Assembly (NCBI GenBank): GCA_045594665.1 | Contig: JAZNYX010000025.1 | Location: 698 to 64,697 of the forward strand | Length of the DNA stretch: 64,000 nt | Direction of reading: 5' to 3' | Origin: Clostridia bacterium | Lineage (GTDB): Bacteria; Bacillota; Clostridia; UMGS1883 | Part shown: positions 56,226 to 64,000 of the stretch, piece by piece | Position numbering within the stretch: position 1 is the stretch's first letter | Layout of the letters: the number at the start of each line of letters is the position of its first letter | Translations under genes and position numbers: made by a program | Notes under the pieces: model-generated | What the model saw: only the letters and a program-made list of their open reading frames with translations | What the model was told of the DNA's origin: nothing | Database searches by the model: none

Positions 56226-56585
56226 CTATTCAAACAATTTTCCTAATGCTTTTTTCTCGATTCTGGAAACATAACTGCGGCTGATACCAAGGATTTTTGC
56301 AACCTCTCTTTGGGGCAGCGGCTCCATGCCGCAAAGCCCGTACCGAAGGCGTATAATCTGCTGTTCACGCTCCGCAAGTGAGCTTCTGATTTTTTTATAA
56401 AGCCGTGAGATTAAATTATCACGGTCGATTTTTTCGCAAATATCCTCATTTTCACTTTGAAGTACATCCATAAGGGAAACCTCGTTTCCGTCACCGTCAA
56501 AGCCTATAGGTTCATTAAGCGAAACCTGGTTTGCAAATTTTTTATCGTGACGGATAGACATAAGGATTTCGTTCGCTATCCCCTC
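56226..56585 (-). CDS. sigK: 3' segment of sporulation sigma factor SigK (regions 3-4; spoIIIC-like); 5' half not in window
   Basis: [14 protein letters not shown]...[24 protein letters not shown]...[28 protein letters not shown]; homology to sigma factors stops at ~56580. Confidence 0.8.
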   Translation of the reverse strand, partial: [119 protein letters not shown]

Positions 56586-58251
56586 TTGACGGCTCTCCGA
56601 AAACATCATCTTCCTCGCTTCCGTAGAGGTACATATGAATGTTTTCGCCGTCCCATACAATTCTTTTTACAAATGTTCTTATAGCTGCTCTCTTTTGCTC
56701 TATATTCATTGTATCGAATGAGCTTGCAAAAGAAGATAATACATCTCGAAGAACATCAAACTCATTATCCGACAATACATTTTCCTCAGTCAGATTTTTT
56801 AAATCGGCAAGCCTTTGTTCTGATGCTTTAATTTCCTTATCTAATTCCTCAATGCGCTGGTTTATATAATCGGTTGCTGCTTCGCCTTTGGCAATGCTTG
56901 TAACAAGATTTTCAATTTGCTTTTTCTTGTCAGCTATGCTATTTTCAAGACTTTCAATCTGTATATCAAGTTCTTCACTGTTAGACTTTATCTTTGTTTT
57001 TGTATTTTCCAACTGTCTGACAAACTCACTGCTGTTTTCGGACAGCTTTTTTATTTCCTCGCAAATTGCTCTGTCTAATACATTTCCGTTAGGATTTTTA
57101 ATCTTGCATTTATGTTGCTGACTTTTCTCTTTAGTTTCACAAAGATAACTGAATCGTCTTTCTCCGTCTTCATAATCTTTGTTATACATTTTAGGTCGCA
57201 TAAAACTGCCGCAATTACCGCACACCAAAAGTCCCGATAATAATGCAGTATGGCTTCTTGGCTTCCTATATGATTTTGATGTGTTCTGTTCAAGGAGCAT
57301 TTGTGCCTTAACCCAGTCTGCACCCGATATAATTCCCTGATGCTTTCCTACTGCTATTATCCATTCGTCTATACTACGCATTACATTGGTTTTTCCTGAC
57401 CTCTGCAGAGTTTTGTTATATCCTATAAGTCCGTGTTTTCCGTCAAACTGTTCCTTTTCGGAATATATATCTACTCCCTTACTTTCAAAATACTTCCAAG
57501 CAGCATTATCAGCAATCATATAAACGGGATTTTGTAGAATTGCTTTAAATGTAAACCTTGTAAAGTCTTTTCCGTTCTTTGTTTTGATGTTATTCTGCAG
57601 AAAATATGTCTCTGTTTTGCTCAAACTGTTGTATTCAAGGAACCTCTCGAAAACAAGTTTGACAATCTCCGCTTCTTCGGGAATAAGCTCCAGCTTATAC
57701 GCTGTCATATCCTTACCGTTTACATTCACTCTTTCAACTATCTTTTTACTTTCATACCCCGTAGGTGTAGCACCGCCAAGCCATCTGCCTGTCTTAGCAA
57801 GCTCGTGCATATTATCCCTTATTCTTTCAGCAATCGTTTCTCGTTCCAACTGTGCAAAGATTGAACAAATATACATCATTGCTTTTCCCATTGGTGTAGA
57901 TGTGTCAAACTTTTCATTGATTGATTCAAAGGTCATATTATAATTATTAAGCTCGTCTATAAGTATTGAGAAATCTCCAACATTACGGCTGATACGGTCT
58001 AATCGGTAACAGACAATACCGCTCAGTTTCTTTTCCTTAGCAGCCTTCATCATTAACTGAAACTGAGGTCTGTTCATATTCTTACCCGAATATCCCTCGT
58101 CCTCAAAAACCAAAATATCTTCGTCTTTTATTTCAGGATTTCTGTTTTTAATATAAGTCTTGCATAACTCAATCTGATTTTCTATGCTTTCACCTTTGCC
58201 TGTAAATTTTGATTTACGTGAATAAATTGCAATTTTTCTGTTATCCATCAT
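56542..58251 (-). CDS. large serine recombinase (SpoIVCA-like)
   Basis: 569 aa; resolvase catalytic domain IAIYSRKSKF...; recombinase domain; Zn-ribbon CGNCGS...C...HKC; C-terminal coiled coil. Confidence 0.9.
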   Translation of the reverse strand: MMDNRKIAIYSRKSKFTGKGESIENQIELCKTYIKNRNPEIKDEDILVFEDEGYSGKNMNRPQFQLMMKAAKEKKLSGIVCYRLDRISRNVGDFSILIDELNNYNMTFESINEKFDTSTPMGKAMMYICSIFAQLERETIAERIRDNMHELAKTGRWLGGATPTGYESKKIVERVNVNGKDMTAYKLELIPEEAEIVKLVFERFLEYNSLSKTETYFLQNNIKTKNGKDFTRFTFKAILQNPVYMIADNAAWKYFESKGVDIYSEKEQFDGKHGLIGYNKTLQRSGKTNVMRSIDEWIIAVGKHQGIISGADWVKAQMLLEQNTSKSYRKPRSHTALLSGLLVCGNCGSFMRPKMYNKDYEDGERRFSYLCETKEKSQQHKCKIKNPNGNVLDRAICEEIKKLSENSSEFVRQLENTKTKIKSNSEELDIQIESLENSIADKKKQIENLVTSIAKGEAATDYINQRIEELDKEIKASEQRLADLKNLTEENVLSDNEFDVLRDVLSSFASSFDTMNIEQKRAAIRTFVKRIVWDGENIHMYLYGSEEDDVFGEPSRGDSERNPYVYPSR

Positions 58252-58359
58252 TCAACAACTCCCATAACAATTATCATAGCGCAACACTAACATTATGGCT
58301 CCCAAACTTATTATGCCTCAAAATTCACGAAAAAGCAAAACCTTTTTTCTAAAAATATG

Positions 58360-58403
58360 AAAAAAGACTGATATAGAGAGCAAATTCGCATCTATACCAG
58401 TCT
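58360..58403 (-). terminator. intrinsic terminator ending the cohesin operon
   Basis: minus strand: agactggtataga...tctatatcagtct followed by TTTTTT. Confidence 0.7.
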
Positions 58404-58431
58404 TTATTTGGGAGTTGTCAAGATTTATTAT

Positions 58432-58608
58432 TTATCTTTGTTTTCTTCTTATCCGTCTTTTAAGCTCTTCCAACCGTATAATAACTTCTTCTTTTTGTGG
58501 CTCTTCCCTCATTAGGTCTACGAGCTTATCAATATACATTACCATTTTATTATCTCTGTCTACATTTCTTTCTTGTATATCTAATACATCTTCAAATATT
58601 CTTATCAA
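58432..58608 (-). CDS. small charged helical hypothetical protein (~58 aa)
   Basis: TTG 58608 preceded by GGAGGTG; ...DKLVDLMREEPQKEEVIIRLEELKRRIRRKQR; start uncertain. Confidence 0.3.
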   Translation of the reverse strand: MIRIFEDVLDIQERNVDRDNKMVMYIDKLVDLMREEPQKEEVIIRLEELKRRIRRKQR

Positions 58609-58667
58609 TATTTTCACCTCCCGAACTCCCAACAATTCAGGTGGTGACTTTCTTCTTTTTAGAATAA

Positions 58668-62375: not shown

Positions 62376-62494
62376 TTTCTCTTTTAAGCCTTTAAACTTC
62401 TTCACCCGCAACCGTTCCCACCAAAATATTTTAAACCTGTTTATGAGCCGTTAAGAGTTTCTTAACAACAAAATAACTGAAAAGAAACAAAACG

Positions 62495-62536
62495 AAAAAT
62501 CACATTGTCACTAATTAAAGTGGTAATGTGATTTTT
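62495..62536. terminator. bidirectional terminator between the two XRE genes
   Basis: aaaaatcacatt...aatgtgattttt. Confidence 0.6.
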
Positions 62537-62563
62537 GCATTTACTTTATTATTATAGATACCC

Positions 62564-62995
62564 TTAAAAATGTTTTATCACTTGATTCATTACATCAAAT
62601 ACACAGTCAAACAACTTTTGCTTATGTGATAACAAATTAAGTATCTTAATAAATCTATGGTTGCTACGATTTAAAGTTATTAGCCAATGGATTGTTTCTA
62701 TACTTAATCCAGTTCTATTATCACAATAGACTTCATTAATTCTAACATTGAAAAATAATGCTAATACAGAAACTTGCAACACCTCACAAATTCTCAGCAT
62801 TTCACCTGAAGTAGGTTCTACTTGATTATTTTCAATTTTACTTATCCTCCGTACATTCATAAATAAATTTTCTGCAAATTTTTCTTGTGTCATATTTTGA
62901 CTTTCACGCAACATCTTAATGTTTTCTCCTACCGTTTTTTGTACGTTGATTTTACAATCATATTTTTCCTGTACAATTTTAATTTTCTCCGACAT
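62564..62995 (-). CDS. XRE-family HTH regulator with C-terminal extension
   Basis: 143 aa; IKMLRESQNMTQEKFAENLFMNVRRISKIENN. Confidence 0.8.
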   Translation of the reverse strand: MSEKIKIVQEKYDCKINVQKTVGENIKMLRESQNMTQEKFAENLFMNVRRISKIENNQVEPTSGEMLRICEVLQVSVLALFFNVRINEVYCDNRTGLSIETIHWLITLNRSNHRFIKILNLLSHKQKLFDCVFDVMNQVIKHF

Positions 62996-63240
62996 CTAAA
63001 TACCTCCTTTATAATTCGCCTCTAAACATAGGGGCATCTTATATAACGGAGTTGAGCCTAAAAAACATCTTAATTATCACAAAAATGTTGGAAATTTTTT
63101 ATCCTACACACAAAGCGACATATTATATTTACATGTGTTTGGATTGATGTCACAATATAAACACAGCTTTTGCAAAACGCTATGTTTAATTTATTAATTT
63201 ATTACTTTACGCTTCAATAGCGGTTAAGGAGGTAACAAAT

Positions 63241-64000
63241 ATGAAGAAAATAACCACTTCCAGTATAGTCAACATTGATGATAGCAAAATCAGTACTGTT
63301 TATAAGACAGGTAATATAACTGAGATTATTACGCCTCATCATAGGAACGAGTGTTTAAAGAAAATTCGTAAACTTAGCAAAACTCAATATGTAGACTTGG
63401 GCACTGGTGAAATTAAGGAATATAAGCAAAGCACAGACAAAAGCGACAACGTACACAACGTTCAACGTTCTTTAGCTAATCTAAGGCGTATCATTAACCT
63501 AAATTTTACTGGCGAAGATTCCGAAAGATTTTTGACTTTAACTTATTCAACCTTGATGACAGACACAAACAAGCTCTACCGTGATTTTAAAAACTTTATT
63601 AGCAAGCTAAGAAAACTTTATCCCGTTGAATATGTTGTCGTGGCCGAACCACAACAATCTGGCAGCTGGCATTTGCACGTGTTATTAAAATCTATGGCAA
63701 TTAAAAGGTTGCATATCCCTATTGAAGTTTTGAGCGAGTTATGGAATCACGGTTATTTCCACATTGAAAAGGTACCATTCGCTGATAATTTTGGAGCTTA
63801 TTTTGCGGTTAGAGTTACTGACCTTTATTCAGAAGACTCTGATATCAATAATATTAATGCTCCAAAATCAGTAGTTAAAGGCGGAAGATTACATTTCTAT
63901 CCTCCAAATTTTAAAATATATCGATGCTCTAAATGCATAAAAAGACCTCAACCTATACAACTGACGTATGGAGAGGCAAAGAAATTAACAGATGGTATGA
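63241..64000 (+). CDS. HUH-type rolling-circle replication initiator (Rep), 3' end outside the window
   Basis: own translation; AAGGAGG RBS; motif 1 FLTLTY, motif 2 SWHLHVLL (HUH); open frame to the window edge, absent from the ORF track because it has no stop. Confidence 0.7.
   Translation, partial: MKKITTSSIVNIDDSKISTVYKTGNITEIITPHHRNECLKKIRKLSKTQYVDLGTGEIKEYKQSTDKSDNVHNVQRSLANLRRIINLNFTGEDSERFLTLTYSTLMTDTNKLYRDFKNFISKLRKLYPVEYVVVAEPQQSGSWHLHVLLKSMAIKRLHIPIEVLSELWNHGYFHIEKVPFADNFGAYFAVRVTDLYSEDSDINNINAPKSVVKGGRLHFYPPNFKIYRCSKCIKRPQPIQLTYGEAKKLTDGM

Follow-up and report, generated by a model that had tools for sequence, protein, structure and literature searches.

The subject of this work is a 64,000-nucleotide stretch of contig JAZNYX010000025.1 from a Clostridia bacterium (hereafter the window), in which the sporulation gene sigK is reduced to its 3' half and abuts, on the same strand, the gene of a large serine recombinase (LSR). 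The junction between the two is very probably the right attachment site (attR) of a skin-type sigK-intervening element, inserted in the chromosome of an uncultured sporulating member of the Clostridia. A first-pass annotation made from the sequence had recognised the architecture of such an element, and this reading has been borne out by an LSR gene at the edge of the insert, a sigK 3' half next to it and relatives in which the two halves of sigK rejoin in frame.

The sigK fragment and its junction

The minus-strand open reading frame (ORF) at 56226..56660 encodes 144 aa, which are sigma-factor sequence from residue 28 on, the first 27 codons being not sigK but the 3' end of the recombinase gene in another frame. 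The annotation had described this ORF as SigK regions 3-4 from about residue 28, with no sigma region 1.2/2 upstream in frame, and both points stand. The host-derived sigK 3' half proper, which lies to the right of the probable crossover, spans 56226..56571 on the minus strand, comprises sigma regions 3-4 and ends ...GKLFE before its stop codon. From IANEILM onward, it matches Pfam Sigma70_r4 (2e-16), and the NCBIfam SigK models score 149.4 bits (9.6e-44) and 146.2 bits (1.1e-42) on it, 43 bits ahead of the SigE models (106.2 and 98.7 bits). Because only half of the protein is present (SigK model positions 109-225 are covered), the SigK score stays under the whole-protein cut-offs (TIGR02846 / NF004471). 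The fragment is also 52% identical (E=4e-28) to residues 111-225 of B. subtilis SigK, for which an approximate reference sequence was used. Its 115 codons are free of stops and frameshifts and have evolved under purifying selection, with a dN (nonsynonymous divergence) of 0.06-0.23 and a dS (synonymous divergence) ranging from 1.4 to saturated in comparisons with relatives, and a dN/dS of 0.06-0.08 where dS could be computed. Judged by these sequence comparisons, window 56226-56571 encodes SigK, not SigE.

The chromosomal neighbourhood points in the same direction. The intact sigK of locus L006 (P0015, 80% identical) is followed downstream by genes for a Cu_amine_oxidN1 protein, enolase, a polysaccharide deacetylase, YchF and a response regulator with its histidine kinase, and the window below 56.2 kb contains the same genes in the same order. 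This downstream synteny extends to intact-sigK loci L007, L010, L011 and L063, and by gene order the fragment occupies the orthologous position of the intact sigK of relatives. Orthology to SigK regions 3-4, on which the annotation had made its reading depend, is therefore supported by protein models and neighbourhood alike. The remainder of the window is housekeeping chromosome, which includes SecA, RNase Y and his genes.

Comparison with uninterrupted sigK genes, which the annotation had proposed as a check, also revealed how abrupt the junction is. At 6/6 intact-sigK loci, homology stops sharply at 56579 (as defined by the blastn ends), right where the LSR gene overlaps the fragment, which agrees with the sharp junction next to a same-strand recombinase that had been claimed. 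The break falls inside the C-I-E-N-E-I codons, where sigma region 2 ends (residues ~105-110 of 222) and where intact genes read TGT-ATAGAAAA-TGAAATA. On the minus strand of the window, the junction reads GAGCCGTCAAGAGGGG-ATAGCGAA-CGAAATCCTTATG, in which ATAGCGAA (56572..56579, minus strand) is the attR core, as delimited by blastn end points and by comparison of the left, right and chromosomal sites (attL, attR and attB) of JAZLQU010000018.1, L001 and L104, and GAGCCGTCAAGAGGGG (56580..56595, minus strand) is the element-side arm, which forms an imperfect inverted repeat with the left-end arm ATCCCCTCATAACGGCTCC of relatives. This arm is conserved at 10 loci (the window, L001-L005, L093-L095 and L104), which amount to five distinct relatives' loci plus the window.

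Where exactly strands are exchanged can be narrowed down. Within one genome, attL (ATAGAAAA/AACAAT..., the slash marking the junction) and attR (ATAGCGAA/CGAAAT...) agree solely at ATAG and at AA. In the reconstructed site of the circular form (attP) of JAZLQU010000018.1, which reads GGAGAGCCGTCAGGAGGGGATAGCGAA/AACAATCCCCTCATAACGGCTCC, the AA sits at the centre of an imperfect inverted repeat; in L001, the centre of symmetry is one base off the AA. Moreover, the conserved Glu of CIENEILM has given way to Ala in interrupted copies only, never in the intact ones that were fetched. Because this substitution is confined to interrupted copies, and because of the attP symmetry centre, the crossover is placed to the right of the Glu codon, and we infer that the 2-bp crossover is the AA at window 56573-56572. 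A crossover inside ATAG is disfavoured, since it would put Ala for Glu and since the attP centre of JAZLQU010000018.1 falls on AA.

The annotation had located the sigK 5' half outside the window, and a tblastn search of the whole 64-kb window indeed found none. Complete elements, with both sigK halves on one contig (3/3), were therefore compared in relatives, namely L001 (an ENA scaffold), JAZLQU010000018.1 (GCA_054266755.1; loci L092 and L093) and L104 (ENA NODE_111). Their LSRs are 83%, 91% and 93% identical to that of the window, and their elements measure 8,762 bp, 12,733 bp and 10,324 bp, respectively. When the insert is removed in silico at the AA ending ATAGNNAA, an in-frame SigK reading ...ATY(V/A)ARCIENEILM... 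is obtained in 3/3 relatives, with a length of 221 aa for L001 and 222 aa for each of the other two. The annotation had suggested joining the halves in this way, and a single in-frame SigK is the outcome in these three relatives, whose attR has the same register as that of the window. By extension, the 5' half in the genome of the window would end ...TGTATAGAAAA, joined to the element arm, the left junction would read ...GCNCGNTGTATAGAAAA/AACAATCCCCTCATAACGGCTCC, with the ~200-aa HTH (helix-turn-helix) module after it and DUF6062 on the opposite strand before it, the rejoined sigK would read TGTATAGAAAACGAAATCCTTATG across the junction (attB being TGTATAGAAAACGAAATCCTTATGTC), and the circle would carry the attP junction GTCAAGAGGGGATAGCGAAAACAATCCCCTC.

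The same arrangement recurs widely in public data. All nine of the closest database relatives of the sigK fragment (81-97% identical) are fragments of ~124 aa, and 11/12 of the closest fetched metagenomic 3' fragments that reach upstream contain SRQEGI(E/A)NEILM, that is, the att arm read in the sigK frame (the ESRQEGI signature). Matching 5' fragments, which end ...ARCIEKTIPS or ...ARCIENSILT before a stop, are numerous, and those of named genomes break alike (...CIENE/ in Desulfotomaculum nigrificans and ...CIEN/ in Lutispora thermophila). The junction is the same in independent ENA, Logan and NCBI assemblies, and this recurrence, together with that of the matching 5' fragments, speaks against an assembly artefact. 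Among the closest relatives, sigK thus seems as a rule to be interrupted, and close relatives with an intact sigK also exist.

Two observations concern individual contigs. An NCBI 5' fragment that ends ...ARCIEKTIPS (P0142), on a 4.2-kb contig, is a possible mate of the contig of the window. L009 and L011, which both belong to metagenome-assembled genome JAZORN01, are separate contigs, each with its own full-length sigK; the two genes differ, sharing 84% and 78% identity with the query, which suggests a mixed bin.

As for the start of the protein, relatives with an intact SigK often have it annotated as 205 aa long, and upstream start codons add a conserved N-terminal extension of ~17-20 aa (e.g. 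MRNLFMRKKYFGQGSVFLLQG... in L006:9953-10618, and in 5' fragments P0126-P0156). From its sequence, this extension looks like a pro-sequence, and many database start-codon calls for this SigK are probably too short. A SigK devoid of a pro-sequence, as in C. difficile, was considered and rejected, the conserved ~17-20-aa extension being carried by 5' fragments and rebuilt genes.

The recombinase module and its extension in relatives

The LSR gene (56542..58251, minus strand), which encodes the 569-aa same-strand recombinase noted in the annotation, was identified by Pfam, PHROG and an alignment to the TP901-1 integrase (3bvp). All three expected domains were matched, Resolvase (PF00239, 7e-37), Recombinase (PF07508, 8e-18) and Zn_ribbon_recom (PF13408, 2e-10), as was the PHROG 95 integrase family (4e-118). 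S14 (in IYSRKS) aligns with the serine-motif position YTRVS of the TP901-1 integrase, the serine of which we take to be catalytic Ser12. By sequence, this is a full-length LSR that has the three domains, and S14 is its predicted catalytic serine. A coiled-coil motif in the zinc-ribbon domain controls directionality in LSRs, and residues ~396-520 gave weak coiled-coil-type matches only. The gene overlaps the sigK fragment, with its stop codon 30 nt past the probable crossover, and its last nine codons and stop are sigK DNA in another frame, the protein ending ...GEPSRGDSE/RNPYVYPSR. No identical recombinase sequence is on record; homologues that are 83-96% identical adjoin sigK 3' halves in other loci, the best match among phage integrases is 39% identical, and relatives in IMG/VR are 38-45% identical only.

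Upstream of the LSR gene lies a conserved region (58290..58338, minus strand), which emerged from an alignment of the window with L093, L094 and L001. It contains a sigma-A-like TTGCTT-17-CATAAT (58338-58310, minus strand), which takes the form TTG(C/A)TT-17-(C/T)A(T/C)AAT across the four loci, and a motif GAGCCATAATGT (58301-58290, minus strand) of presumed function, which resembles the distal att arms. In the window, L093, L094 and L001, this motif conforms to GAGCCRTAATGT, i.e. GAGCC(A/G)TAATGT, ~40-50 nt before the LSR start, and the likeness is to distal arms of the type GAGCCGTCA...; it may be an extra binding site for the recombinase, or for a helix-turn-helix (HTH) protein, that serves autoregulation. 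A generic scan for consensus promoters and terminators returned counts at chance level and was rejected as evidence.

Further upstream, a terminator-like hairpin followed by a U-run (58357..58405, minus strand) is located between a 58-aa ORF and the LSR gene. With -21.3 kcal/mol (z=-6.5), it was matched in stability by 0/200 shuffles, and it was overlooked by a simple terminator scan because it has few G-C pairs. L093 and L094 also have a hairpin at this place. Hairpin and U-run would insulate the LSR gene from upstream genes. The 58-aa ORF (58432..58608, minus strand), which has a TTG start and ribosome-binding site GGGAGGTG, is found directly upstream of the LSR module. It has no family match in Pfam or PHROG, and 83-92% identical copies precede the LSR gene in L093, L104 and L105 despite differing neighbouring cargo, which makes it a weak candidate for a recombination directionality factor (RDF).

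An unexpected feature came from the relatives in which the circle could be closed. In three in-silico circles, the LSR frame is open across attP into the first gene at the left end of the element, which yields proteins of 764, 767 and 761 aa in which the ~200 aa added beyond the LSR are conserved and contain two Xre-type HTH motifs. In these relatives, attP lies inside a continuous ORF, and because it does, integration splits two genes at once, LSR-HTH and sigK, and excision would restore the two of them. The same architecture is found in P0335, a 773-aa protein with an LSR part 59% identical to that of the window, which is encoded on Logan contig L103 (1282-3603) together with an attP-like site and a replication initiator (Rep) of the same family as that in the element of the window. 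This contig has no sigK and is hence an observed unintegrated configuration; a circularity test found no terminal overlap in it. A phmmer search of 1.84 billion representatives added ten or more 50%-identity clusters of LSRs of 668-823 aa that, judged by inspection, have a like C-terminal extension.

In the integrated state, the LSR is of canonical size (~565 aa) with a tail of 7-10 residues from sigK DNA, and the HTH module, which then lacks a conserved start codon, comes right after the sigK 5' fragment, a place where transcription would reach it from the sigK promoter alone. The LSR of the window ends at the split point of its relatives (GDSE/), and its element probably has a recombinase-HTH gene split by integration too. 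It is conceivable, although we would not call it probable, that splitting of the ~765-aa LSR-HTH lets the element sense integration, with the two LSR forms, or the HTH module driven from the sigK promoter, setting the direction or timing of recombination.

Element content and rival explanations

From 56.57 kb to its end at 64.0 kb, the window consists of element DNA, which amounts to 7.4 kb. The annotation had considered all genes from ~56.58 kb to the end of the window to be accessory and the element to exceed 7.4 kb, and this is what cargo, regulators and Rep indicate, the element running off a contig of 64,743 bp, which ends at most 743 bp past the window. Because the contig ends inside the element, the sigK 5' half is placed on another contig. 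If the element is collinear with that of L104, to which the recombinase end (88%) and the Rep module (96%) are similar, we estimate a size of ~10.5 kb and a left junction ~3.0 kb past the window. In L104, the counterpart of the missing part consists of the remainder of Rep, three small ORFs, an HTH protein with an M78 peptidase, and a 206-aa HTH protein.

The cargo next to the recombinase module encodes a secreted cohesin-domain protein of 266 aa (58668..59468, minus strand; Pfam Cohesin 4e-12), which is 95% identical to a copy in JAZLQU010000018.1, and an 817-aa secreted protein (59468..61921, minus strand) with Pfam Big_2, cohesin and type I dockerin domains, whose C-terminal 427 aa are 70% identical to a 640-aa protein of the same relative. 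These two elements share 4.1 kb at 90% identity, which encompasses the sigK 3' half, the LSR gene, the 58-aa ORF, the cohesin gene and part of the dockerin gene. Around a constant LSR and att module, the cargo is mosaic: cohesin/dockerin proteins in the window and in JAZLQU010000018.1 (the latter also with Fic and a D5-type primase), a 1016-aa leucine-rich repeat (LRR) protein in L104, glycoside hydrolases (GH88 and fucosidase genes) with MazEF in L094, and ArdC with a small resolvase in L001.

Beyond the cargo lie genes for two Xre-type HTH regulators, one of 95 aa (62088..62375, plus strand; Pfam HTH_3 4e-14, and PHROG transcriptional regulator families) and one of 143 aa (62564..62995, minus strand; Pfam HTH_3 8e-12), and the first 253 codons of a rolling-circle Rep (63241..64000, plus strand), with the HUH motif HLHVLL. 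The Rep ORF, which is absent from the ORF list because it runs off the edge of the window, matches Pfam REP_ORF2-G2P (2e-16) and PHROG 3419 (2e-21), and is 96% identical to the 288-aa Rep in the complete sigK element of L104 (96.4% over 814 bp of DNA). No relatives of this Rep were found in IMG/VR, and the metagenome collection gave three distant short matches (31-37% identical). The 143-aa HTH protein has an identical copy on short ENA and Logan contigs, and window 62114-63574 (the gene of the 143-aa HTH protein, the beginning of Rep and the sequence between them) is 98-99% identical on three short ENA/Logan contigs from other samples; the three contigs that share this gene are at most 3 kb long and stop at window 63574. 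As 62114-63574 recurs in other samples, the regulatory and replication module circulates in several metagenomes.

A PHROG search detected no phage structural, packaging or lysis genes in the 7.4 kb of the window, its matches being to an integrase, regulators, the rolling-circle Rep and an Ig-like domain. Likewise, none of the genes called in the three complete elements of relatives has a structural or packaging Pfam family, although several have no family at all, and no close relative of the element was found in IMG/VR. From its gene content, the element appears to be a small Rep-encoding non-phage carrier, unlike the phage-like skin of B. subtilis, and it may replicate as a circle after excision.

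How such an element would operate can be sketched. The LSR would probably be made from its own sigma-A-like promoter, and would recombine attL with attR, which would release the circle and rebuild sigK. A directionality factor would be needed for this, as in C. difficile and B. subtilis, and its production would restrict excision to the mother cell, the spore keeping an integrated copy. The left end and the sigK 5' half would reside on another contig of the assembly. Considering the pro-sequence-like extension, SigK may here have a checkpoint besides excision, unlike the situation in C. difficile.

Several points weigh against reading the window as part of a developmentally excised skin-type element: (i) the 5' half of its own genome was not recovered, one contig scan with a chimeric full-length SigK query giving full-length sigK only, (ii) the 58-aa ORF, the weak candidate for a directionality factor, is not found in the elements of L094 or L001, (iii) no sporulation-type promoter was recognised by the consensus promoter scan, which itself performed at chance level, (iv) excision, its timing and its cell specificity would follow in this element by analogy with known systems and (v) the source may be a metagenome bin, and a second intact sigK in the same cell is possible. 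A rival reading is an ordinary mobile element for which sigK is a mere conserved landing site, which excises only for horizontal spread with its Rep and has no programmed excision in the mother cell, its carriers sporulating poorly or after chance excision. Such an element would fit the existence of close relatives with an intact sigK, and a family that is mobile and mosaic (one LSR/att module with unrelated cargo), encodes a rolling-circle Rep, includes a relative in the unintegrated attP configuration and has a sigma-A-like LSR promoter rather than one of sporulation type. We nevertheless consider this rather unlikely, since the top nine matches (81-97% identity) are all interrupted fragments, since both halves are intact and under strong purifying selection across species, which is hard to square with lost SigK function, and since a sigma-A-driven LSR is, in C. 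difficile, compatible with mother-cell-specific excision through an RDF.

That the element is instead a dead remnant, in a lineage that no longer sporulates and in which the sigK 3' half is a decaying pseudogene and the recombinase inactive, is very improbable. Although one half only is visible, and although no sporulation genes are present among the ten large flanking ORFs examined, a remnant would hardly display 115 codons without stop or frameshift at a dN/dS of ~0.06-0.08, a full-length LSR with three domains and a predicted catalytic serine, a conserved att arm, and relatives that retain matching 5' halves. An artefact, be it a chimeric contig or a fragment of another sigma factor such as SigE, is scarcely credible; the assembly is possibly of metagenome type and the contig ends inside the element, but the junction is shared by independent ENA, Logan and NCBI assemblies, the SigK models score 43 bits above those for SigE, and the neighbourhood is that of sigK.

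Comparison with known systems

Interruption of sigK is a textbook example of developmental DNA rearrangement. Elements with a recombinase gene directly upstream of the 3' half have already been described, and the window is mainly a further example, which extends the phenomenon to abundant uncultured gut Clostridia. It adds two variant features: the carrier is small, non-phage and Rep-bearing, its cargo being exchangeable, and integration splits a recombinase-HTH gene in relatives and probably in the window too. With this modular carrier, a sporulation gene gains and loses cargo that encodes cellulosome-type cohesin/dockerin proteins, LRR proteins or glycoside hydrolases.

The closest parallel in organisation is skin(Cd) of C. 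difficile 630, a 14.6-kb element with LSR CD1231, expressed from a sigma-A promoter, and RDF CD1234, controlled by sigma-E and SpoIIID, through which excision driven by a sigma-A-dependent LSR is specific to the mother cell (PMC5025042). Both are small elements that split sigK, with an LSR gene at the edge whose 3' end faces the sigK junction, the sigma-A promoter there has as its counterpart a sigma-A-like consensus match upstream of the LSR gene in the window, and excision would rebuild sigK in either case. They differ in (i) the insertion site, which in the window lies in the CIENEI codons, at ~residue 107 of 222, and which for skin(Cd) has been reported near the PhiS63 site (PMC3442830), (ii) the ~17-20-aa N-terminal extension of SigK in relatives of the host of the window, which is missing in C. 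difficile, and (iii) gene content, no CD1234 homologue having been recognised in the element of the window, and cargo and replication module being unrelated.

In skin(Bs), the recombinase gene adjoins the sigK 5' half, unlike the layout in the window, where the LSR gene adjoins the 3' half on the same strand. This element of B. subtilis 168 employs SpoIVCA and the 64-aa RDF Skr (PMC6957869). The likeness resides in LSR-mediated developmental rejoining of the sigK halves, as established there, and in a small ORF directly upstream of the recombinase gene in both, whereas skin(Bs) is a 48-kb defective prophage with a sigma-E-driven recombinase and the element of the window is ~10 kb and non-phage. 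Galperin et al. list 15 genomes with skin elements of 2.6-48 kb, whose sole shared gene is an SpoIVCA-like recombinase at the edge, with spoIVCA usually immediately upstream of spoIIIC (bioRxiv 10.1101/2022.02.25.481979). The layout of the window is exactly this usual one. As far as the accessible part of that study goes, the host of the window, from an uncultured gut lineage of Clostridia, is not shown to be on its list, and its text does not mention a split recombinase-HTH gene or a rolling-circle Rep.

Other elements share some of these properties. From the accessible part of the report, gin of Bacillus cereus ATCC 10987 is a non-prophage gene-intervening element that is excised by its own serine recombinase (PMC5595907), and like the element of the window it interrupts a mother-cell sporulation gene, the target being gerE instead of sigK. 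The C. perfringens phage PhiS63 is a complete 33.6-kb siphovirus that integrates in sigK and excises precisely, with int opposite to sigK (PMC3442830). Its site, at nt 427, is elsewhere in sigK than the CIENEI site of the window: by reading, the PhiS63 core GTAATGAAAT maps to a GNEI motif ~30 codons downstream of CIENEI. The octamer AATGAAAT is common to the PhiS63 core and to attB GAAAA(C/T)GAAAT (E-N-E-I) of relatives with T, the window having C, in AACGAAAT (56560-56579, minus strand); this could be a coincidence, or could stem from related recombinases that use two look-alike sites in one gene.

For the split recombinase-HTH gene, the nearest precedents are the myxophage Mx8 and the mycobacteriophage BPs, which use tyrosine integrases. 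The in-frame LSR-HTH fusion across attP appears to be new. If the split gene were functional, it would be a new means by which a serine-integrase element can tell whether it is integrated and, as a compact natural switch, would interest integrase engineers. By analogy, this could be the serine-recombinase counterpart, wired to a sporulation checkpoint, of the Mx8 IntP switch and of mycobacteriophage integration-dependent immunity. According to the accessible parts of these reports, attP lies within the integrase gene in Mx8, where integration alters the C-terminus of the integrase (PMC6070905), and within the repressor gene in BPs, where integration alters the C-terminus of the repressor (PMC4557955). 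What these systems have in common with the elements described here is thus an attP inside an element coding sequence, which makes the protein produced dependent on the state of integration. What sets the latter apart, on the same sources, is that the targets of Mx8 and BPs are not sporulation genes, whereas here the LSR is parted from a ~200-aa tandem HTH module, and the target gene itself needs to be rebuilt.

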